Source: Planctomycetota bacterium (GTDB lineage Bacteria > Planctomycetota > JAJSAM01 > JAJVHW01). From it: a stretch of 64,000 nucleotides of DNA. The notes under the pieces were generated by a model. It was not told the DNA's origin. It did not search any database and saw only the letters and a program-made list of their open reading frames with translations. A program made the position numbers and the translations under genes. This document shows positions 25,498 to 35,622 of this stretch, in pieces (within the stretch, counting starts at the first letter, position 1; each line of letters opens with the position of its first letter). The stretch spans positions 1,408,001 through 1,472,000 of the forward strand of contig CBDFJG010000004.1 in NCBI GenBank assembly GCA_965248445.1, in the 5' to 3' direction.

Positions 25498-26701
25498 CTC
25501 GCTGCGCGCCGCCGTTCCCTCCCGCGCCCTCTACCTGCTGCGCGCATTCGATGGGCGCGTGCTGCTCCCCGCGATCGTACTGGTGTTCATCGGGCTCGTT
25601 TCGCTCGCGGCGGATCAGCCCGAGCGGCTGGAGACGCAGGCCGGCGGCGCGGTCGTCGGGCTGTGTGCGTTCGTCGCGGTCGTACTGCTGCCGTACCGGC
25701 GGCTGGTTCAGCTCGCGTACCCGTTCTATGCGTTCAGCTTGCTGCTTCTGCTCGCCCTGTTCGTGCCGGGTCTCGGGCGCACGGCCAACAATGCGACGCG
25801 GTGGCTCGAGATCGGCCCCATCGGTCTGCAACCGAGCGAACTCGCGAAGGTCGCCGTGGTCTTTGCGCTCGCGCGCTACATCCGCTTCCGGCAGGACCAC
25901 CGCACCTTCCGTGGCCTGCTGATCCCGTTTCTGCTCACACTGGTTCCGCTCGCGCTGATCGTGAAGCAACCGGACCTCGGCACCGCGCTGATGCTCGTGC
26001 CCGTGCTGTTCCTCATGCTGTGGGCAGCCGGTGCGCGACCGCGGCACCTGTTGACGGTCTGTGCGCTCGGCGTGCTGTCTCTTCCATTGCTGTATGCGGT
26101 TGCGCTCAAGCCGTATCAGCAGAAGCGCGTGCGCACGTTCGCGCAGCCCGTGACGCAGATGGTGGCGAGCGCCGTCTCGTCCGCCGTGCCGATCGCGACG
26201 CCGGTTCCGCTGGTGTTCGTGGACACGCGCAAGAGCAAGGACGGGATCGATGACTTTCACATCAGCATGTCGCTTGCCGCGGTCGCGGGCGGCGGGCTGT
26301 TCGGACAGGGCTTCCGCGACGGGGAGCTCAATCGCGGCGATTTCGTGCCGGAGTCCTGGACCGACTTCATCTTCTCCGTATGGGCGGAGGAGTGGGGGTT
26401 CGTCGGCGTGATGCTGCTGCTCCTCGCGGAGGCCGGCCTGCTGATCGGCCTGGCTGCCGTCGCCCGCGACGTGAAGGAGCCGTCGGCGCGGCTCCTCGCG
26501 GTCGGCGCACTCGTGCTGCTCGGCTTCCAGGCATGCGTGAACCTGGCGATGACGGTGGGGCTCGCGCCCATCACGGGCCTGCCGCTGCCGTTCCTCTCGT
26601 TCGGTCGGACCTCCATGGTCGCGAGCTGGTTCCTGCTCGGGCTGGCCCTCAACGCCCGCCGCAGCCGTCCGATCGTGTTCGGCAACGCTGATTTCGATTG
26701 A
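25487..26701 (+). CDS. rodA: SEDS glycosyltransferase RodA
   Basis: ATRWL, QPSELAK, QPDLGT, PE..TDFIF, EEWGF, PITGLPLPFLSFG. Confidence 0.94.
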   Translation: MTTDSLRAAVPSRALYLLRAFDGRVLLPAIVLVFIGLVSLAADQPERLETQAGGAVVGLCAFVAVVLLPYRRLVQLAYPFYAFSLLLLLALFVPGLGRTANNATRWLEIGPIGLQPSELAKVAVVFALARYIRFRQDHRTFRGLLIPFLLTLVPLALIVKQPDLGTALMLVPVLFLMLWAAGARPRHLLTVCALGVLSLPLLYAVALKPYQQKRVRTFAQPVTQMVASAVSSAVPIATPVPLVFVDTRKSKDGIDDFHISMSLAAVAGGGLFGQGFRDGELNRGDFVPESWTDFIFSVWAEEWGFVGVMLLLLAEAGLLIGLAAVARDVKEPSARLLAVGALVLLGFQACVNLAMTVGLAPITGLPLPFLSFGRTSMVASWFLLGLALNARRSRPIVFGNADFD

Positions 26702-26733
26702 GCGGAGGCCGCCCGTCGTACGTTCACGAGGGT

Positions 26734-27004
26734 GTGAGTAGCAGGGAACTCCTGGACCGTGGCCGCATCCAAGGGAGCAGAGAGCTGAAGACCGGCCGCA
26801 ACGTCGATCTCGAGGCTGTCGGGCAGGTGCTCGCGGGCGACCGCGAGGCCTTCGGCGACCTCGTGAACCGGTGGCAGGACCGGGTCTACGGGACGATCTT
26901 CCGCATGGTGCGGGACCCCGAACTGGCCCGTGATCTGTCGCAGGAGACGTTCCTGAAGGCCTTCGGCAACCTGGCGAAGTTCCGGGGACAGGCGTCCTTC
27001 GGGA
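26734..27004 (+). pseudogene. ECF sigma factor, region 2 truncated by IS66
   Basis: GDREAFGDLV..., A.DLSQETFLKAF..L..FRGQASF stops at the IS end before the conserved W of region 2; region 4 absent. Confidence 0.88.
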
Positions 27005-28504
27005 GTAACCGTTCACCCCTTGACAGCGTGTGAGCCTCAGCGTGCGACGGGCAGCGGGACCATGACGGGCGGGTCGGCGCCGGTGAGGTGCGCGGCGACC
27101 GAGTCGGCGAGGAAGTCGAAGACTTGGTCGCCACGGCGTCGCAGCGTGGCCGCGGCGGTCAACACGCGCTCGGCGAAGCGGAGTCCGCGAGCGGACTGGC
27201 TTCCGAAGGAGCCCTTGCGCCAGAGCACCGCTTTGCGGACCGCGCGCTCGGCGGCGTTGTTGGTCGGACTCACGTCCTGGGTCCGCGCATAGGTGAAGAG
27301 GGCGACCACGCGGGGGCGCAGATGGTTGGCCAGAGCCGAGTCGTCGTTCGCGATCAGTCGCTCGAGCCGTCCGCGCAGCACAGCGGCTTCGCCTTGCAGC
27401 CGGTCACGGTCGCCGTGCTCACCGAAGAGCCGGTAGCTGCGCATGACCGACTGCGCGATCATGACGCCCTTGTTGCCGAAGCGGCGATGTCCTCGCGGGC
27501 CTTCGGCCAGCGCACGGAAGGCGCGCTCGATGTGCGCCCAGCAGAGCTGGCGGCGGGCAAGTGGGTGTGACTCGTAGGCACCCATCCGGTCGCTGATCAC
27601 CGTGCCACCGAAGCGCCGCCCGATCAGCCGCCCTTTCGCCTTGGCACTGCGGCGGCGATCGATCCCGAAGGCTGTGGCGTGCTCGCTCTCCGCCGCCCAC
27701 AGCCAGCACACCCGGCCCCGTTCCTTCCACGACGTCTCGTCCACGTTGGCTCGCAGCGACGTGCGGACTGCCCCGAGGGCTTCGAGGTACGACGAGTGCA
27801 GAGCGTCACTGAGCCGACGCTCACAGTCGCTGATCTTGCCCAGCGACATCTTCACACCGAAGATCTCACCGAGCAGCCGCTGCGTCTCCCGCACGCTCAC
27901 GCGGTACACGCCGCGCAGCGCGCCGGCAAGTGTGGTCAGCCGCGGACCGAAGGCCCCGGTCGGCACGCCATCGGGCAGGACCGCCGTCGTGACCGCACGA
28001 CAGCGCCGGCACCGCGCCTTGTGCAGCCGGTGCTCCCGCACCGTGACGAGCACGCGCGGGAGCACCGTCACCTGGTGCCGGTACGGATCGCCGATGCCCT
28101 GCTCGAGATCGTCGTGTCCGCACGCGTCGCAGAGGTCGGGACGGTGCTCCTTGGTCTCATCGACGTTGGACGGATCCACCAGCTCGCGCGCCGTGCCCTC
28201 ATGGCCCGGCTGTCCGCCCTGCTTGCGACCGCTACGCGGCCTTCGGCCGCGACGGCGCTTGGACCACGCCGGGTCCGACGACGGAGGCCTCGAGCTGTTG
28301 CGGGAGTCACGCTTCAGACGCGACTCGAGCTCGTCGATGCGGCGCAGATGCTTCGCTTCGCGACGCTCCAACTCCTCGATCCAGGCCAGAAGGCCCTCGA
28401 CCATCGCCCGCAGATCCTCGTCCTGCCGCTCGCCCACAACATCTTGATCGACCGATGGCCGAACGATCTGGATCCTGGCTCGCGACGAAGGGGTGAACGG
28501 TTAC
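27005..28504 (-). mobile_element. IS66-family insertion sequence, single-ORF (ISBst12-like), 1500 bp
   Basis: 17-bp perfect terminal inverted repeats GTAACCGTTCACCCCTT; flanks CTTCGGGA and CTTCCTGC are not a duplication. Confidence 0.93.
27037..28437 (-). CDS. IS66-family DDE transposase
   Basis: Coiled coil, NSSRPPSSD, GGQPGH, Zn ribbon, DET...SD...TNNAAERAVR. Confidence 0.95.
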   Translation of the reverse strand: MGERQDEDLRAMVEGLLAWIEELERREAKHLRRIDELESRLKRDSRNSSRPPSSDPAWSKRRRGRRPRSGRKQGGQPGHEGTARELVDPSNVDETKEHRPDLCDACGHDDLEQGIGDPYRHQVTVLPRVLVTVREHRLHKARCRRCRAVTTAVLPDGVPTGAFGPRLTTLAGALRGVYRVSVRETQRLLGEIFGVKMSLGKISDCERRLSDALHSSYLEALGAVRTSLRANVDETSWKERGRVCWLWAAESEHATAFGIDRRRSAKAKGRLIGRRFGGTVISDRMGAYESHPLARRQLCWAHIERAFRALAEGPRGHRRFGNKGVMIAQSVMRSYRLFGEHGDRDRLQGEAAVLRGRLERLIANDDSALANHLRPRVVALFTYARTQDVSPTNNAAERAVRKAVLWRKGSFGSQSARGLRFAERVLTAAATLRRRGDQVFDFLADSVAAHLTGADPPVMVPLPVAR

Positions 28505-28626
28505 CTTCCTGCCAGTCCGTCAGACTGGCACTCGGGGGTTTCAACAGGTTGACACTCTGCCGACAGCGCGTCCATGGCGTCGCTGAGCAGTGCGCGCAAC
28601 GCGACGATCTCGTCTCGGAGCGTCAC
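28505..28626 (-). pseudogene. Phage ORF truncated by IS66
   Basis: GTG overlaps the upstream stop; MTLRDEIVALRALLSDAMDALSAE...; the stop codon is supplied by the IS end (G TAA). Confidence 0.6.
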
Positions 28627-29273
28627 GGCGCGGCCCTTCGGGCAGCACGGCCGAGCATCCTCTCGGTGCTGATGAAGCCGCTCGGGTCCTCGGTCTTGAT
28701 GCGGCGACGCTGGTTTACCCAGTCGATCGAGCGGCTCCCCGATGACTCGGCAGCGCGATCTCGGTGCACGGCCGATGCCAGGTCCTTCAGCCGGCCGTCC
28801 TTCAAGCGGGACCGGGAGCCGGCCCAGGCAAGAGCGAAGCGACGGGCCTCCCCCTCGTTAGGGGGAGGGGGGGGTTCTGTCCCTGTCCCTGTCCCTGTCA
28901 GAGCTACTTCCGAACGATTTTCGTCACGCGCGCTTCCGTGACGTTTCTTGTCCCGCGCCTTCTTCGCTCGAGCCGGAGATCCCGGATCCTTCTGCCACCT
29001 ATCCCATTTCTGGATCACGTAGTTAGGGCCAACCTGTTCCACCCAACCAAGGGCAGTCAGGGCGCGAAAGAACACACCCTGTCTACGCTTGGAGAGCCCC
29101 GCAAACGCCTCCAGTAGGGGGGCGATGACTGTCCCGTTCACGGTCCCGTTCCAGCCCTCTCGTTTCGAAATCGTCAGCAGAACTACCCAGGAATAGCGGT
29201 GTTCTACGGGGAGGGTCAGGGTCTCCAGGTCCATCGGAAACCCGGTGCTGAGGGCTATCCACTGGCGTGTCAC
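28623..29273 (-). CDS. Putative phage replication initiator-like protein
   Basis: N-terminal WI.L, winged-helix-like G.V...W..WQ, basic linker, GTGTGTE repeat then PPPP; GTG at 29273 overlaps the upstream stop. Confidence 0.6.
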   Translation of the reverse strand: MTRQWIALSTGFPMDLETLTLPVEHRYSWVVLLTISKREGWNGTVNGTVIAPLLEAFAGLSKRRQGVFFRALTALGWVEQVGPNYVIQKWDRWQKDPGSPARAKKARDKKRHGSARDENRSEVALTGTGTGTEPPPPPNEGEARRFALAWAGSRSRLKDGRLKDLASAVHRDRAAESSGSRSIDWVNQRRRIKTEDPSGFISTERMLGRAARRAAP

Positions 29274-29854
29274 CCGGCGCGCTCCCTCGCGCGCTCCTGG
29301 TGGTGCCGACGCAGCCACACGAGGAAGGACTCGTAGTCGCGATCGGACAGGCGAGCGACCCGCCCCTGGACCGACTTGAGCCGCTGGGCGCGCACATGCT
29401 CTATCGCTCCGCCCCACGACTCGATCTCGTAGAGGCGGGGGAAGGCGATCTCCAACGGCCTGCGGTGAGCGCATGGAACCGCGCCAGAGGGCGGGTGGTT
29501 CTGCGTGTTCTCGCACGGCGCTAGCGCGTCGATGAGTGCGGCTTCAAGGTAGCGCACGCAGCGGTGGCGGGTCTCGGTGTAGACGTCCACCCAGAGCATC
29601 GCGCCTGCCGCTTCTGCCGCGAGCAATAGCGTCTTGCCCTCCCACCCCTTCCCGATGTGCGCCGAGATCCGCCACCATTGCCGACGGGTCATGCCGACAT
29701 AGCTACAGACGACCCCGCGCTCATCGGGCCACCGCGCCGAGATCACGTACACGAGGTGGCTGTGGAAACCCAGGTCGGTGATCGTGTGGCGCGTCAGGTC
29801 TTCGCGCGCGGGGCCACCGTAGCAGGGCTCAAGAGACGCAAGCGTCGCGCTCAT
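29270..29854 (-). CDS. GIY-YIG-like nuclease
   Basis: LVYVI...YVGMT...R..H...E..LI...N pattern. Confidence 0.72.
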   Translation of the reverse strand: MSATLASLEPCYGGPAREDLTRHTITDLGFHSHLVYVISARWPDERGVVCSYVGMTRRQWWRISAHIGKGWEGKTLLLAAEAAGAMLWVDVYTETRHRCVRYLEAALIDALAPCENTQNHPPSGAVPCAHRRPLEIAFPRLYEIESWGGAIEHVRAQRLKSVQGRVARLSDRDYESFLVWLRRHHQERARERAG

Positions 29855-30081
29855 CGACGGATTCCCCGGCTCTCCATCCCGCCCGCTCTCGACCCCGTGC
29901 TGTGTTCAGCGCGACCCAGAACGGGCACGATGTCACAGGGGAGAACGGACGAGACGGAACGCCGTCGGTCGAAGCGCTGAACACGCCCTCCATTGTCGCC
30001 GACAGACACCCCCACAAGGCTCCGCATGTCGGCGTGTGGAGAACCCGAGGAAGCGGTTGGCCGCATGTGGATCCAGCTCAC
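29851..30081 (-). CDS. Phage hypothetical protein (76 aa)
   Basis: Fills the gap exactly with 4-nt overlaps on both sides. Confidence 0.45.
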   Translation of the reverse strand: MSWIHMRPTASSGSPHADMRSLVGVSVGDNGGRVQRFDRRRSVSSVLPCDIVPVLGRAEHSTGSRAGGMESRGIRR

Positions 30082-30338
30082 GACGCGAGGGCTCCCTTCG
30101 TCTTCGGGGGCCTGTTCCAGTGCGAGATCTTCTTGTCGCGGATCGCGCCCTTGACGTGCCGCAGCTGCCGGGAACACGTGTCGACGCGGCAGTAGTGATA
30201 CGCGTGGAACTCGTCGCCATCGACGCCACCGATGCCGCGCAGCATGTGCGTGTCTTGGGTCGGCCCGTGCACAGGGCATCGCCACCACGTGCCGGGGAGC
30301 GAGTCGATCTTGGGCGCCTTCTTCGGTCGACCGGTCAT
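30078..30338 (-). CDS. Phage hypothetical protein, putative Zn-binding (CPVH...C....C)
   Basis: ATGA overlap with the HNH stop. Confidence 0.6.
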   Translation of the reverse strand: MTGRPKKAPKIDSLPGTWWRCPVHGPTQDTHMLRGIGGVDGDEFHAYHYCRVDTCSRQLRHVKGAIRDKKISHWNRPPKTKGALAS

Positions 30339-30643
30339 CCCGTCCACCCCCAGAGCTGCGCGCGGAGATCGCGGACGTGCTGCCGGGCGCGCGCCCAGTT
30401 CACGTGGACCGGTCCCGCCTCCGACTCGTCGACTCTCATGTAGACGCCACGCAGGATCCGTGATCCCTTCGCTGCGTTGCAGGGCCCGCACGCTGGCACC
30501 CTGTTCTCCCGGCGGTTCGTACCACCCTTCGCGCGCGGGATGATGTGGTCGACGGTCTCGGCCTCGCCGCACCCGCAGTACGCGCAGTCCCGCGGCGTGA
30601 AGCCCGCGAACGCGACGTTGTCGGCCAGGTACGGGTGGTTCAT
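30335..30643 (-). CDS. HNH endonuclease
   Basis: CAYCG..TVDHIIPRAKGG.N...N.VPAC..CN..KG. Confidence 0.92.
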   Translation of the reverse strand: MNHPYLADNVAFAGFTPRDCAYCGCGEAETVDHIIPRAKGGTNRRENRVPACGPCNAAKGSRILRGVYMRVDESEAGPVHVNWARARQHVRDLRAQLWGWTG

Positions 30644-30858
30644 GCGCCGTCCCGTACACGCGCGGCGGGGTCCGTCTTCCCGGCCTTCTCGAACACGCGG
30701 CGGCGGAAGTCGTCGCAGAGCGCCGACAGACCGTCGGCACTCGCACCGGACAGCGGAAGCGACTGGCCGGTGAGCTCTCCGTCTCTCCCCACCATGAGCA
30801 GGAAGTTCGGGATGGCGATCGGCCTGACTTCCGCGCGTACTTGGATCCTCTCACCCAT
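30640..30858 (-). CDS. Phage hypothetical protein (72 aa)
   Basis: GGAG RBS, overlap-coupled. Confidence 0.65.
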   Translation of the reverse strand: MGERIQVRAEVRPIAIPNFLLMVGRDGELTGQSLPLSGASADGLSALCDDFRRRVFEKAGKTDPAARVRDGA

Positions 30859-31015
30859 CGTTCGTCTCCTCTTCCTGCTCCGGGCGCTCGACCGGCTTGC
30901 GCCCGAATGGCAACTGCTTCGGAGGGCACCGCTCGCGGTGGTCCTCGAACTCCTCGAGTGCCGGGTCGCCCTGGCGCTTCCAGCGGATGAGTTCGTCGCA
31001 GATGGTGCAGATCAC
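30851..31015 (-). CDS. Phage hypothetical protein with C2HC-type Zn motif (CTIC...H...C)
   Basis: GTG at 31015 overlaps the upstream stop. Confidence 0.55.
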   Translation of the reverse strand: MICTICDELIRWKRQGDPALEEFEDHRERCPPKQLPFGRKPVERPEQEEETNDG

Positions 31016-31908
31016 GACTCGCCCCGCTTGTCGTAGGCGGCGCCGATGATGCGTCGCATCCAAGACCCCACGGTGAGGGAGGCAGGGCAGTCGTGCGACG
31101 CGAGGTGGTCAGCCGCCTCCCCGATCCACGCTTCGTCGGCTTCGCCCGCACCGCACTCCGGACTCTGGCGGCACCACCAGAGCGTCAAGCGGGATCCGCA
31201 CGTCCCGGAGCACGCCACGCCGCTCCGCGCCCTCGCGTGCAGCGCGTCCTGGACGGCCTCGTCCATAGCCTCGCGGGCTGACCTCCCGCCCTGGATGTGT
31301 CCAAGGAGGGCGTGGCACTCTGCGGCCCGTGCTCCGGCGATTGCGCGAGCGTGAGAGTCGTCGGCCTCTTCGGACGCCTGAATCGCGTGTCGGCGGCTGC
31401 GTTGCGCGATGACGGCGTAGACCCGCTGCTGCTCGTCGCGGGCGGTCGCGGAGTTCGCCTTCGCGAGCGCGTTGCGGAGGCCCTCGACCATCTTGTCCAG
31501 CTTGCGGAGTTCGGCCGTCTGTCGCGCGATGCGATTATCGCGGTCGGATACACGCGTCTTGCCCTGCACCAACTCCTCGCGTAGCTGATCGACGCCGTCC
31601 TGCTGCGCCGCGTTCCGGTGGTCGGCCACCTCTCGACAGAGGTTCCCCACAGACGGGGGGTGGTGCTTCAACCGGTCCTGTGGGCATTGCGGATCAGCGA
31701 CGCCCCGGAATTCCTGCCACACGCTCTCCGCGGTCCACACCGGCGGATGTGCCGCGGCGTACTGGCGCTCAACGTCTGCCAGCACGACGCGGCCACCGAT
31801 GGCCACACAGCCTTTCGCGATGCGGAGCATCCGCTGCTCCTTGGCGTACCACTCCAACTTGTCTCCAAGCGTGACCTCGCTCTCGCTGACCATGCTGTCG
31901 TTCTTCAC
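31012..31908 (-). CDS. Phage hypothetical coiled-coil protein
   Basis: 298-aa ORF, overlap-coupled, central heptads, Cys-rich C-terminus. Confidence 0.65.
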   Translation of the reverse strand: MKNDSMVSESEVTLGDKLEWYAKEQRMLRIAKGCVAIGGRVVLADVERQYAAAHPPVWTAESVWQEFRGVADPQCPQDRLKHHPPSVGNLCREVADHRNAAQQDGVDQLREELVQGKTRVSDRDNRIARQTAELRKLDKMVEGLRNALAKANSATARDEQQRVYAVIAQRSRRHAIQASEEADDSHARAIAGARAAECHALLGHIQGGRSAREAMDEAVQDALHARARSGVACSGTCGSRLTLWWCRQSPECGAGEADEAWIGEAADHLASHDCPASLTVGSWMRRIIGAAYDKRGES

Positions 31909-32213
31909 CGGTTCCTCCCGTTCGCCGCGGCCTGTAGCGCGCGGATACGCGCTTCCAGGTTGGCGATGTGCAGCCGTTGGTCCCGGCAGTCCGCATGCGC
32001 CCCGATCTGCGCGCGCACGAAGTCCGCCGGCTTCTCGTCGCCCGGCTCGAAACCCATGTCGGCGAGCAGCTTCCCGAAGTTGGCGATGTGCTGCTCGGCG
32101 TCGTCGCGTTCGCCCTCGGCCTTCTCGCGTCGGCCGCGCTCGTCGTCGAGTGCGCGATTGGCGGCGCGGAGTTCGGCGCGCAAGGTGTCGATCTGCTTGT
32201 CGGTCGTCGTCAT
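31905..32213 (-). CDS. Phage hypothetical coiled-coil protein
   Basis: 102 aa, GGAGG RBS, overlap-coupled. Confidence 0.65.
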   Translation of the reverse strand: MTTTDKQIDTLRAELRAANRALDDERGRREKAEGERDDAEQHIANFGKLLADMGFEPGDEKPADFVRAQIGAHADCRDQRLHIANLEARIRALQAAANGRNR

Positions 32214-32632
32214 GCGCGCCCCTCCGGAATCCTGACGCCGTCAGGTAGTGGCCGAAACCACATGAAGTCGGTGACGCGCGTCAGCCCCGCCCGACTCGGG
32301 TGCGGGTCGTGGACCATCTCGGTGCCGATGCCGACGACAGCGTGCGACCGACCGCGAGGTCCGTCACCCCCGATGATCGTCGCAACGTCGGCAGGGACGG
32401 CGTGCGCGTTCTCCCCGTCGCAGAGGTAGACGCGTAGTCTCCAGTTCTCGCGCGCGAGATCGACGGTGATGTTGAACCAGTGCCGCTCTACGTCTTCGTT
32501 GCTGTGGAACTCCAAGATGTGGGGCACCTGCTCGGCATCAACTCCGAGGATTGACGCGATGCAACAGCGATAGCAGTCGCCGCCGTCTCCGAGAATCGTC
32601 TGGTCGACGGGCCAGATGGCCGGCGCGGTCAC
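32210..32632 (-). CDS. Phage protein with papain-like (C39-type) Cys-His-Asp signature
   Basis: DQT..GDC..CCIASIL, SHAVV, VHDP; GTG at 32632 overlaps the upstream stop. Confidence 0.65.
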   Translation of the reverse strand: MTAPAIWPVDQTILGDGGDCYRCCIASILGVDAEQVPHILEFHSNEDVERHWFNITVDLARENWRLRVYLCDGENAHAVPADVATIIGGDGPRGRSHAVVGIGTEMVHDPHPSRAGLTRVTDFMWFRPLPDGVRIPEGRA

Positions 32633-32925
32633 GGTTGCACCGCCGGGAACTCCCGGACGCGCAAGTCCTGGGGCCACTCGGCGGGATCGCCGCCCTTGCG
32701 GTCGCGGAGACGGACGACAGTCCGCACCTCCTCGGGAGTGAAGCGCCGGCACTCGCAACGGAACCTCGACGAGCTGAACAGTCGATTCGCGCCCCGGGCA
32801 CCGCAGCACCGTGACCGGGTGAAGTAGTGCGCGAGGCGCGGGTGCCCGCAGGCGCAGGGCGCGTAGGGATTGGGACGCCGCGCGTCCGTCTTCGCCATGC
32901 CGCGGGAGAGCTTTGTGCCGTTCAT
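32629..32925 (-). CDS. Phage Cys/His-rich protein (CACGH...H...C...CEC..F)
   Basis: Overlap-coupled; C-terminal DPAEWPQDLRVREFP. Confidence 0.6.
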   Translation of the reverse strand: MNGTKLSRGMAKTDARRPNPYAPCACGHPRLAHYFTRSRCCGARGANRLFSSSRFRCECRRFTPEEVRTVVRLRDRKGGDPAEWPQDLRVREFPAVQP

Positions 32926-33065
32926 CGCCCGACACCCCGGGGACCGCCTCGGGGAACGGTACGCACCGCACAGGGGGCGACGGAGTGCAGCGGAGGCGGT
33001 GAATTCGAGCCCACGGAGGCCCTCGCGCGGGTCCCGGGGTCATTGCAAATCCGTGGCCCCCTCAT
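32922..33065 (-). CDS. Phage small ORF (47 aa)
   Basis: ATGA overlaps at both ends; absent from the ORF track. Confidence 0.4.
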   Translation of the reverse strand: MRGPRICNDPGTRARASVGSNSPPPLHSVAPCAVRTVPRGGPRGVGR

Positions 33066-33484
33066 GCGGACGCCTCGGCGACGACGCCGTCGGGCCACGC
33101 GCTGTCAGGCCACGGGTCGGCGTAGTGTCGGTCGCGCAACTTGGGCGGGACGGAGCGGGTTGCGGCTGCGAGGCGGGCGGTCGCGCGCCGCCTCCACTTC
33201 ACCGCGGACTCGTGCATCCGCTGCCGGCGCTTGCACGGGGCGCACCAATCCTCCGGCTCCCGCGTGCCCCACTCCTGGTGGTAGTCGCCGTAGAAGTCCA
33301 TCGACTCGGACGTGACTCGATGGCGCCAGCACGGCGGGTCGTCGCCCTCGACCTTGTCGCCCTTGCGGGTGGCCCAGCCGCGGCTATCCTTCTCCTCGAG
33401 TTCGCACACGACCTGGGCGCGCAGCACCTTCCAGAACTGCGCGAAGCGGCGCGCGCGACCGAGGGCGCGGATCGCACGGCTCAT
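33062..33484 (-). CDS. Phage hypothetical protein (C...C...C..C)
   Basis: 140 aa, first complete gene of the coupled chain. Confidence 0.6.
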   Translation of the reverse strand: MSRAIRALGRARRFAQFWKVLRAQVVCELEEKDSRGWATRKGDKVEGDDPPCWRHRVTSESMDFYGDYHQEWGTREPEDWCAPCKRRQRMHESAVKWRRRATARLAAATRSVPPKLRDRHYADPWPDSAWPDGVVAEASA

Positions 33485-33532
33485 GCCGCCACCGCCAGGT
33501 CTTCAGCTACACCGGGACGCGTAGCGTGAGCG

Positions 33533-33604
33533 TGGGACACATCCTGGGACACATCTTGGGACACTCGCGAACTCGCGCGAGGTCGTGCCAGGGGGTGGGC
33601 TTGA
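33533..33604 (-). other. Putative prophage att junction: tRNA 3' fragment plus three 12-bp-period TGGGACAC repeats
   Basis: Minus strand TCAAGC-CCACC-CCCTGGC-A fits T-loop/T-stem/acceptor/discriminator geometry; repeats at 33533, 33545, 33557. Confidence 0.55.
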
Positions 33605-33646
33605 GGCTGTGAGGGCTCGCGGGGCCGGGGCGGAGTTAGGCTCCAG

Positions 33647-35107
33647 CTACCGGATGTGGAAGTGCTCGAGGAAGCCCTTGTTCGTGCTGGTGGTTTCCAG
33701 CTTGTCGACGAGCAGTTCCATCGCCTCTTCGGGCTTCAGCTTGTTGAGCACGCGGCGGAGGGTCCACGTGAGCTTGAGGACCTCCGCGGGGACGATCTTC
33801 TCCTCCTTGCGCGTGCCGGACTTGCTGATGTCGAGAGCGGGCCAGATGCGCAGTTCGGCGAGCTTCCTGTTGAGGACGATCTCGGCGTTGCCGGTGCCCT
33901 TGAACTCCTCGAAGATCACCTGGTCCATGCGGCTGCCGGTGTCGACGAGCGCCGTTGCGATGACGGTGAGTGAACCGCCGCCCTCGACGTTGCGCGCGGA
34001 ACCGAAGTGTCTCTTGGGGTGCTCCATCGCGCGGCTGTCGAGGCCGCCCGAGAGAGTGCGGGATCCGGAGCCCGTCTCCATGTTGTAGGCGCGTGCCATG
34101 CGGGTGAGCGAGTCGACCAGCATGACGACATCCTCGCCGGCTTCGACGAGCCGCTGCGCGCGGGCGAAGGCCATCTCGGCGACGGCGACGTGGCACGGGG
34201 CCAGGTCGTCGAGCGAGCTCGCGATGATGTCGCCCTTGATGGTGCGGCGGATGTCGGTGACTTCCTCGGGGCGCTCGTTGATGAGCAGGACGAGGACGTG
34301 CACGTCGGGGTAGTAGGTGTTGAGCGCGTTGCCGAGCTTCTGAAGGATGACCGTCTTGCCCGCGCGGGGCGGGGCGACGATCAGGCAGCGCTGCCCGAAT
34401 CCGACGGGAGCCAGCAGGTCGATCACGCGGGTCGTGACGTCCTTCCCGTCGCCTTCGAGCTGCATCCACCGCTCGGGGTCGATGGTCGTCAGGTGCTTGA
34501 ACGGGACCCGGAACTTGTACTCGTCGGGATACTGACCATCGAGCGTTCCGATCTCGTGGCACGTCGGGCGGTGCCCGTTGCGGCCGGGGATCTCGACCTT
34601 GCCCATCACCCGCGTGCCGCTGGCGATGTTGTACTTCTTGACGAGCGCTGCGGGCAGGTAGACGTCGTCGTGTTCGGCGATCAGGTTCTTGTGGATGCGC
34701 CGCAGGTACGCGAAGCCCTCGGGCATGACCTCGGCGATGCCGTCGGCGGTCTCGGGGAGCTCTCCGCCCGGCATGTACGGGGGCTGCTTCTGGTGCCAGC
34801 GCTGCGGACGTGCGCCGCCGCTGCCGCCGCCACGCCGGCCACCGCCGCCACCACCGCCGCGCCGCGCGCGGTTGCCTCCGCGCTTCTGCTGGCGCTTGCC
34901 GCCGCCGCCACCACCGCGGCGTCCGCGGGTCTTCTTGGGCTGGGTGGCGCGGGCGTTGCCGCCGCCACCACCGCCGCCTTGGCCGCCGCCTGCGCCGCGT
35001 CGGCCGCGTCGGCCGCGCCGTTTGCGCCGGCCGCCGCCTGGGCCGCCGCCGGATCCGCCGCCACCACCGCCGCCCGCTGGGGGGCCGCTTGAGTCACTGG
35101 GAGTCAT
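33647..35107 (-). CDS. rho: Transcription termination factor Rho with Gly/Arg-rich N-terminal extension
   Basis: G.GQRCLIVAPPRAGKT, ERPEEVTD, DSLTR.ARAYN, LSGG, FEEFKGTGN, SGTRKEE. Confidence 0.97.
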   Translation of the reverse strand: MTPSDSSGPPAGGGGGGGSGGGPGGGRRKRRGRRGRRGAGGGQGGGGGGGNARATQPKKTRGRRGGGGGGKRQQKRGGNRARRGGGGGGGRRGGGSGGARPQRWHQKQPPYMPGGELPETADGIAEVMPEGFAYLRRIHKNLIAEHDDVYLPAALVKKYNIASGTRVMGKVEIPGRNGHRPTCHEIGTLDGQYPDEYKFRVPFKHLTTIDPERWMQLEGDGKDVTTRVIDLLAPVGFGQRCLIVAPPRAGKTVILQKLGNALNTYYPDVHVLVLLINERPEEVTDIRRTIKGDIIASSLDDLAPCHVAVAEMAFARAQRLVEAGEDVVMLVDSLTRMARAYNMETGSGSRTLSGGLDSRAMEHPKRHFGSARNVEGGGSLTVIATALVDTGSRMDQVIFEEFKGTGNAEIVLNRKLAELRIWPALDISKSGTRKEEKIVPAEVLKLTWTLRRVLNKLKPEEAMELLVDKLETTSTNKGFLEHFHIR

Positions 35108-35622
35108 ACGTCTTGCACCCCATACGGGGAGCCTCTCTCTTCCGGACCCGCTGGTCGCGGGTCTCACTCGAACCGGCATCTCGGCCGCTGGCGTGCTTCC
35201 CCGGTCTCACGGAGACACAGCACACCCGGACGCCCTGCCGGCGGATCGTCGATCTGGCGCTGTGGCGCAGTCGCGGCGATCGGCCGGACGGGACAAAGTT
35301 GCATCGGGGGAGGGAACCGATCCGGCTACAGGCTGCCCGATAGGGTCGGGCCGACCTGAGAGGCCGTCATGGGCTTCTTCCTCGTCCGGCACGCCTGCCA
35401 GTCCTGGCGGGTGCGCGGGCGGTTCCGATGTCCTTTTCTACATCGGCAAGACCGGGTCCTCCCATGGAAATCAACTCGGGCCCCGGGAACTTCCCGAGCC
35501 TGGACAGCCTCGATTGTGTGCCTGACGTCGTCTCTCGCCCCTGCGTGGGGGGCCGCGTAGGCCGCCCCTGCGGTTGAGCCGAGAACCGCCTCAACGGCGT
35601 CAACCGTTGAGCCAAACATGAA

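Follow-up and report, generated by a model that had tools for sequence, protein, structure and literature searches.

An att junction at the 3′ end of rho in a Planctomycetota genome, and a possible relay frame antisense to the integrase that excision would complete

Why does an open reading frame that crosses the att junction of an integrated element end on the very start codon of the first phage gene behind it? The question is raised by a window of 64,000 nucleotides (G000:C4:1408001-1472000, where G000 is the genome, 5.4 Mb and 92% complete, and C4 one of its contigs). An earlier note, made from the letters of this stretch, had read the locus as a tyrosine-integrase att junction with a tRNA-type core, at which integration strips a degron from the tail of an integrase or repressor and excision switches on the replication operon of a single phage. 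Here, we found that the locus is an att junction, on the rho side, of a tyrosine-integrase prophage that has decayed; the copy in the window is a non-functional remnant. The features at the junction are, in window coordinates:

33647..35179, minus strand: host rho (transcription termination factor; start codon uncertain), Pfam Rho_RNA_bind and ATP-synt_ab
33653..33659, minus strand: putative 7-bp overlap (crossover) CCACATC, at the same position as the duplicated cores of the relatives G005 and G004
33565..33652, minus strand: C-rich phage arm between core and arm repeats, containing a 19-mer at 33586-33604
33533..33564, minus strand: three arm-type integrase sites GTGTCCCA (TGGGACAC on the plus strand) with period 12, matching the arms at an integrase on contig C3
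33481..33652, minus strand: distal, phage-side part of the att-crossing relay frame, ending LAVAA* and open after rejoining to the C3 end
33062..33484, minus strand: first gene beyond att, 140 aa, GC3 0.91, ATGA-coupled at both ends

The crossover sits within the last codons of rho (33653-33659), the 3′ end of which is attB. The rho-end att pattern has exactly three matches in the genome (window 33659, C3:256288 and C3:255523), with a further copy at C3:252198, and the overlap at C3:256282-256288 shares 6 of its 7 bases with that of the window, plus GTAGC beyond. The window rho ends HIR*, the att copies on C3 and the relative G006 read HIK*, and the last codon and stop of the window rho are probably phage-supplied. 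Four same-family relatives have a rho paralog of the window type, and two of them (G005, G004) carry a tyrosine-integrase element at the rho end: the integrase begins 70-80 nt past the rho stop, and the final rho codons are duplicated at the far end of the element, 5.7 and 5.2 kb off, with a duplicated core of 13 bp in G005. The 3′ end of rho is repeatedly used as an integration site in Planctomycetota, looks like an accretion hotspot and could be used for integration vectors. The tRNA-3′-like core of 20 nt that the earlier note had proposed is not the core of this junction: the piece is 19 nt long (33586-33604), occurs just once in the genome even with 3 mismatches allowed and ends none of the ARAGORN tRNAs of the genome, in which all 20 amino acids are covered. 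A tRNA-type core is present only at a second junction further on, at 33042-33055, whereas here the core is the rho 3′ end.

The three repeats at period 12 were read correctly, with GTGTCCCA at 33557-33564, 33545-33552 and 33533-33540. A period-12 pair of this 8-mer occurs at one place besides the window in the 5.4-Mb genome, namely on C3, where it ends at the start codon of a tyrosine integrase (C3:256338-257450; 370 aa, PF00589) that is followed by a convergent HTH_17 excisionase and then an IS. Across the genome, 16 loci carry some 8-mer three times at period 12 with no fewer than 3 A/T, and apart from the window they are mostly simple codon repeats. We did not take the GTGTCCCA repeats for replication iterons, since the arms they match stand at the start of an integrase. 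The proposal of arm-type sites at a tyrosine-integrase att junction is thus borne out by the shared rho-end core, the arm repeats and the integrase itself.

Where is the other end of the element? At C3:256288, a rho-type core lies 30 nt upstream of two GTGTCCCA copies at period 12, and the arm copies common to both ends (three in the window, two on C3) are of one 8-mer and lie only at these loci. From the same arms and the rho-type core we infer, rather than observe, that the window junction is paired with C3:256288, because the two ends sit on different contigs. They were most likely separated by an IS-driven rearrangement; insertion sequences are abundant throughout the genome. The paired overlaps differ at 1 of 7 bases, and such one-base differences between paired ends, here and near the core in G004, together with related integrases that sit at short cores inside host genes, hint at relaxed homology needs. 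The other two rho-type att copies were rejected as partner: they have unlike arms, and joined to them the frame stays open for only 58 and 121 nt upstream of the core, versus 805 nt at the C3 integrase end. Close to the C3 integrase, 15 nt match tRNA-Gln, but this stretch was rejected as core as well; it overlaps a dispersed short repeat, and the rho-type core lies nearer the arms. Short-read contigs (three runs of one sample, which may be the window's own) span 30103-33902 with zero differences and bridge the junction unchanged, which shows that the junction did not arise from misassembly of the long contig. Among the short-read contigs listed there is no joint at att, and contigs drop rare forms. 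Viral contigs contained no relatives of the integrase, hence no intact attP to inspect; a protein search gave 1 outside homologue, a phage collection 7 distant integrases (the layouts of 3 were uninformative) and a metagenome scan 6 weak, short loci that were left out of the analysis.

As to the target gene, the genome has two rho paralogs, 48% identical, and the att target was seen only at the window copy. At C3:252186-256290, three tandem rho-type att copies are found with cargo genes in between, and two of the three have arms resembling those of the G005 rho element. In G005, a long series of short cassette-like genes lies beyond the rho element.

From the rho stop at 33647, a chain of small phage-like genes begins 165 nt later and runs on the minus strand from 33484 to 28505; its first gene, of 140 aa, has no match in Pfam, PHROGs or Atlas. 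The open frame ending LAVAA* stands as originally described, its stop (TGA 33481-33483) overlapping the ATG of this gene (33482-33484). In the integrated state, its only starts back to the stop at 33738 are the GTGs at 33564, 33552, 33540 and 33492. Taken alone, the frame is unremarkable: it has 56 open codons with a P(open) of 0.20 in 3000 dinucleotide shuffles, and with a GC3 of 0.61 its tail is not codon-adapted. When attP was rejoined in silico from the rho and C3 ends, however, the frame was open over 326 codons, in register with the antisense strand of int. The int gene begins at the other arm and points outward from att, on the opposite strand; xis is convergent to it, and the xis stop overlaps the GTG start of the relay frame. 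This geometry agrees with the earlier suggestion that integration cuts a frame which is coupled to the first gene beyond att. The relay is broken once, by a stop that coincides with a TTA Leu codon of int and lies 805 nt ahead of the core. Of the 103,835 Leu codons in the genome only 230 are TTA, and this rarity suggests that the relay-breaking stop is possibly decay; in a 63% identical paralog on C2, the relay is open throughout.

Is such a frame a common feature of related elements? To answer this question, we considered 11 Planctomycetota elements of which both ends could be rejoined. We observed an att-crossing frame ending in an overlap with the first gene in 9/11, and the genes beyond att were co-directional with the xis operon after rejoining in 9/11 elements. 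All five rejoined elements of G000 have a frame that stays open over attP and overlaps the first gene by ATGA or GTGA; they were rejoined at shared cores in rho, tRNA-Cys (three sister arms), element D (two cores), tRNA-Phe and tRNA-Arg, and of nine joins made, one (D1 with C3:1678) was dropped with only a 6-nt match. Among the relatives, eight integrase loci had long flanks, two of them (G016:C64 and G010:C1) without a far att, and four of the six with both ends showed the frame across attP and the first-gene overlap. In a 58-kb prophage at G006:C9, the last residues of the frame are AVAA and the operon behind it includes DUF5131, a DnaB-N/AAA helicase and a portal gene; in three small elements the frame ends on a Rep initiator (Rep_trans by Pfam in G005, by visible similarity in the other two), twice after 190-197 codons. 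The gene types beyond att among the relay elements comprise Rep_trans, DUF5131, DnaB-N/AAA helicase, portal and DnaB. Both misses are in relatives: the second element at G006:C56, with tandem att, crosses the core without an overlap, and at G005:C111 the frame is closed and the far-end genes face att.

The frame can also be fixed beforehand by the start codon of int. In the 10 elements in which int adjoins att, the int-start-codon frame ends in the first-gene overlap in 8; the two other reading frames of an element hold 1-5 stops each. The shuffle P(open) per element was 0.17, 0.21, 0.06, 0.18, 0.07, 0.02, 0.02 and 0.08. Divergent sister arms point in the same direction, as all three tRNA-Cys arms keep the relay frame open where the other frames gain stops, and both sister arms of element D keep it open despite a length change. 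Element D departs from the simple layout, in that its relay through int ends on the next gene, after which three genes and then an SD-ATG frame across attP follow.

Two kinds of locus met in this survey deserve mention. At G000:C4:1381650-1383294, an excisionase without its own stop is fused in frame to the antisense relay, with 558 open codons after rejoining. Integrated elements of about 5 kb with an integrase, xis and a Rep_trans rolling-circle initiator sit at rho or tRNA-Gln (G005:C97:49090-54805, G004:C434 and G006:C56 near 152000-157100), and no capsid gene was seen in them.

Where does the frame start? We sorted 45 integrase loci with a small xis profile and found a convergent xis-like HTH gene at 15, an upstream same-strand one at 15 and neither at 15. 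At one of the 15 convergent-xis loci, xis is fused in frame to the relay; at 10 of the other 14, an in-register start lies within -8..+4 nt of the xis stop, a range picked after a first look at the data and with an xis profile seeded from 13 of the same loci. Near other antisense stops, such a start was found in 84/424 (0.20), which gives a binomial p of 4e-5, kin not being independent; three of the xis-coupled matches are related Rep_trans elements. Six of the 10 starts are direct GTGA/ATGA overlaps, and 7 of the 10 have an SD-like match of 4-6 nt. A phylum search added 13 loci without a further convergent-xis case. The openness of the path from xis to the int start is less telling: with equal trimming it is open in 11/15 convergent-xis integrases versus 7/15 controls, and since the controls are also often open, openness across int alone is weak. 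It is moreover favoured in two Rep_trans intervals, which include an opposite-strand gene. In-register antisense frames are open in 162 of 655 genes of the GC-rich genome, and in 33-51% when counted by GC3 bin. Depletion of the codons CTA and TCA in convergent-xis integrases is suggestive only: they make up 5 of 518 CTN/TCN codons versus 121 of 1973 for other four-fold NNA, and in the controls 13/551 versus 78/1773. The relay pattern is absent in 2 of the 11 rejoined elements and in 3 of the 15 convergent-xis loci.

Based on this geometry, we consider it on balance probable that the frame is a translational relay, which leads from xis over antisense int and attP to the downstream genes and is complete only after excision. 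The elements would form a family with a lone opposite-strand int starting at att and an early operon in the order xis, antisense int, attP and further genes, in which the relay frame would start at the xis stop, keep the antisense-int register, cross attP and stop on the start of the first distal gene. Upon induction, the early message would yield xis, int would be made from its own start at att, and Int and Xis would excise the element. On the excised circle, the early message would run on past xis, crossing int in antisense and then attP, and ribosomes that finish xis would restart on the relay and reach the first distal gene, the translation of which would thereby be coupled; relay translation would also keep Rho away from some 1.3 kb of RNA that would otherwise go untranslated. 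While the element is integrated, its distal genes would have neither the early promoter nor the ribosome supply of the relay. Since the chain is cut at att, the genes beyond it, which in intact relatives are a Rep initiator, a helicase and head genes, would stay off until xis acts. Provided that transcription crosses attP and that relay translation, coupling and protection from Rho (anti-polarity) occur as the geometry suggests, excision would act as the on-switch, and we count this part of the earlier note as right. HTH genes upstream of the xis-side operons in elements E, F and G006:C9 indicate that repressors seem to exist separately.

A wider formulation, to which we give somewhat short of an even chance, takes the frame antisense to int as an overprinted, information-free ribosome bridge of inverted-int phages and small integrating replicons in Planctomycetota. 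Recombination would make or break the coupling and place excision before replication, read-through would silence int, and some of the junk products would be Ala-Ala-tagged for disposal. The damage to the host and the amount of host DNA carried off depend on whether a prophage replicates before excision or after it. If the reading is true, a gate of the type ‘excise first’ would be hard-wired in a reading frame with no extra regulator needed, and a rare long bacterial antisense ORF would have a clear, testable job independent of its protein. Because the relay is whole only on the excised circle, it would be invisible to annotation. It recurs among these elements and is probably a functional, new form of excision-gated expression.

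Does the junction itself contain further signals? In the interval 32800-33900 neither an intrinsic terminator nor a sigma70-like promoter was found (sigma70 consensus scan, for which zero promoters are expected by chance too), and the RNA fold of the junction region is not unusual (z -0.41). With no terminator between rho and the first gene, read-through from rho could reach that gene in the lysogen. The first 80 nt past the rho stop hold 40 C and 19 G, which places them in the top 0.2% of genome windows. As a general feature, a C-rich, rut-like arm of the Rho-loading type is unsupported, with 3 of 12 arms in the top 5%.

The chain of genes behind the junction is itself composite, and its features are:

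33042..33055, minus strand: core of another att site, that of a second element; its 14 nt run antisense to the anticodon arm of tRNA-Cys, 430 nt beyond the first junction
32922..33065, minus strand: 47-codon frame, the ATG of which overlaps the stop of the 140-aa gene and the stop of which overlaps the ATG at 32925
28505..32925, minus strand: small phage genes of the second element, overlapping in a chain; they include a phrog_5845 protein, an HNH endonuclease and others without family
27005..28504, minus strand: IS66-family element (Pfam DDE_Tnp_IS66) truncating the prophage remnant; its flanks differ and there is no target duplication
26698..27004, plus strand: N-terminal fragment of an ECF-type sigma factor (Pfam Sigma70_r2), cut by IS66

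The single replication operon of one phage that the earlier note had seen here therefore dissolves: a second att junction follows 430 nt on, most of the operon genes belong to the element joined there, and 12 phage-like window ORFs tested against Pfam and PHROGs gave no match to a replication family. Sister junctions of the second element are found at C2:559605-559650 (a 45-nt tRNA-Cys copy) and C2:697060, and its cognate integrase, with matching arms, lies behind tRNA-Cys at C3:1389245. It may have joined at a secondary site or by module exchange. The 47-codon frame is in register with the relay tail of the second element (arms 32939-32958), so that the nested junction keeps an unbroken ATGA chain 33484 > 33065 > 32925; this fits a relay, but has a one-in-three chance. 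Parts of 28505..32925 are 93-100% identical to C2:352897-356352, C3:1682957-1683513 and C4:1916044-1917272, with 100% identity to the last over the 1.2 kb adjoining the IS66 end. The IS66-family element has dozens of copies of >99% identity in the genome, and on its other side (window 26698-28560) about 50 nt resemble the end of another IS.

Could the junction simply be an ordinary one? In that case the frame would go without translation and owe its openness to chance or to side effects of GC-rich DNA, of the period-12 arms and of the RBS plus ATGA of the next gene, and excision may gate transcription as in Tn916. We regard this as rather unlikely, yet several observations fit it: the P(open) of 0.20 for the 56 codons, the tail GC3 of 0.61, the frequency of open antisense frames in general, the one break in the relay of the window element, and a phage methyltransferase gene at C4:1954346 that terminates with the same AVAA/ATGA sequence. 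What an ordinary junction leaves unexplained are the 8 of 10 int-fixed frames that end on the start of the first gene with unrelated arms, twice after 190-197 codons, and the coupling at the xis stop in 10/14.

Less likely still, and in our view improbable, is an att-crossing frame that is real but short, i.e. a leader ORF starting in the int-side arm from a promoter near the int start, with the antisense stretch incidental. Candidate starts for it exist in the window element (an ATG 10 nt ahead of the core, and GTGs at 37 and 49 nt), in B, C, E, F and G004, and in element D, where an ATG with a good SD lies 80 nt before the core, and such a leader would bypass the stop at -805. The proximal starts, however, have neither a consistent position nor a consistent SD, the tRNA-Gln element at G006:C56 has no start within 270 nt, and the coupling at the xis stop is not accounted for.

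The original reading, the severed C-terminal tail of an integrase or repressor with a ClpXP tag as in the integration-dependent immunity of BPs, started from the Ala-Ala ending, which resembles that of the host tmRNA tag (SLAA) in a genome with clpX. Indeed, AA ends 3/9 relay frames versus 15 of 218 coupled genes. The other six relays end otherwise, with R, S, VA or SA as endings, and among the 218 ATGA-coupled genes of the genome no ending is more frequent than AA (15), with Ala as last residue in 63, so that a degron stripped by integration is unsupported. Disposal of the relay product by ClpXP is possible, though not needed as an explanation. Since the rejoined attP puts a whole int on the opposite strand, starting at the other arm and reading away from att, and the frame upstream of the core is antisense to int with no repressor N-terminus in it and no tRNA core beside it, the model fails, no BPs-like protein loses a tag, and this reading is very improbable, being contradicted unless the true partner is another, unassembled locus of a genome that is 92% complete.

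How does the favoured translational relay compare with known systems? In the lambda pL operon, int is in sense and is retroregulated at sib via RNA structure, and the b-region genes beyond attP are dispensable. There, too, the early operon crosses attP and is split by integration; unlike in lambda, the genes beyond attP here are replication or head genes in relatives. According to the reports on Tn916 (PMC6540685, PMC5812530), once the element has been excised, read-through that begins in the xis region passes over the joined att and arrives at the transfer genes. The likeness to our elements lies in the tyrosine integrase and in end genes that are cut off from the other-end promoter while integrated, but xis and int of Tn916 have the same sense and the gate described there is transcriptional (PMC6540685, PMC5812530). 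Our elements are phages or of the Rep_trans kind and have int on the opposite strand; the message would have to traverse it in antisense, and xis is connected with the first gene by a coupled frame.

In the lambdoid phage Phi24B, as far as the accessible text goes, int is inverted with its own promoter and xis is lambda-oriented at the end of a repressor-controlled early operon, so that, as here, int reads away from att and xis is convergent (PMC3064807); in the same text, ‘antisense’ and ‘overlap’ occur 0 times, with no mention of an antisense frame or of an operon beyond attP. In BPs, attP is located within the gene for the repressor and int comes next in the same orientation; an ssrA-like tag is present on the viral form, and the truncated, integrated form of the repressor is the active product (PMC4557955). 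Shared with BPs are an attP within an open frame, the removal of its 3′ end by integration and an end that can read Ala-Ala (PMC4557955); different are the frame, which here is the antisense of int, the ending, which is not conserved, and the lack of any involvement of a repressor. No paper on rho as a target, or on an antisense frame that links xis with attP, came up in a literature search in which subscription papers were thinly covered, so that novelty is unproven.

Further att-related sequences were seen in the genome. With 1 mismatch allowed, a dispersed 14-mer repeat has 25 matches; many lie between genes, some form inverted pairs, and the repeat is REP-like (examples at C4:862047-862139, C1:355322 and C3:252913). 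Related integrases lie inside host genes with short cores at C2:809595, C1:214023, C4:390660 and C4:1948430. Six copies of the 3′ half of tRNA-Pro(cgg) point to another much-used att site.
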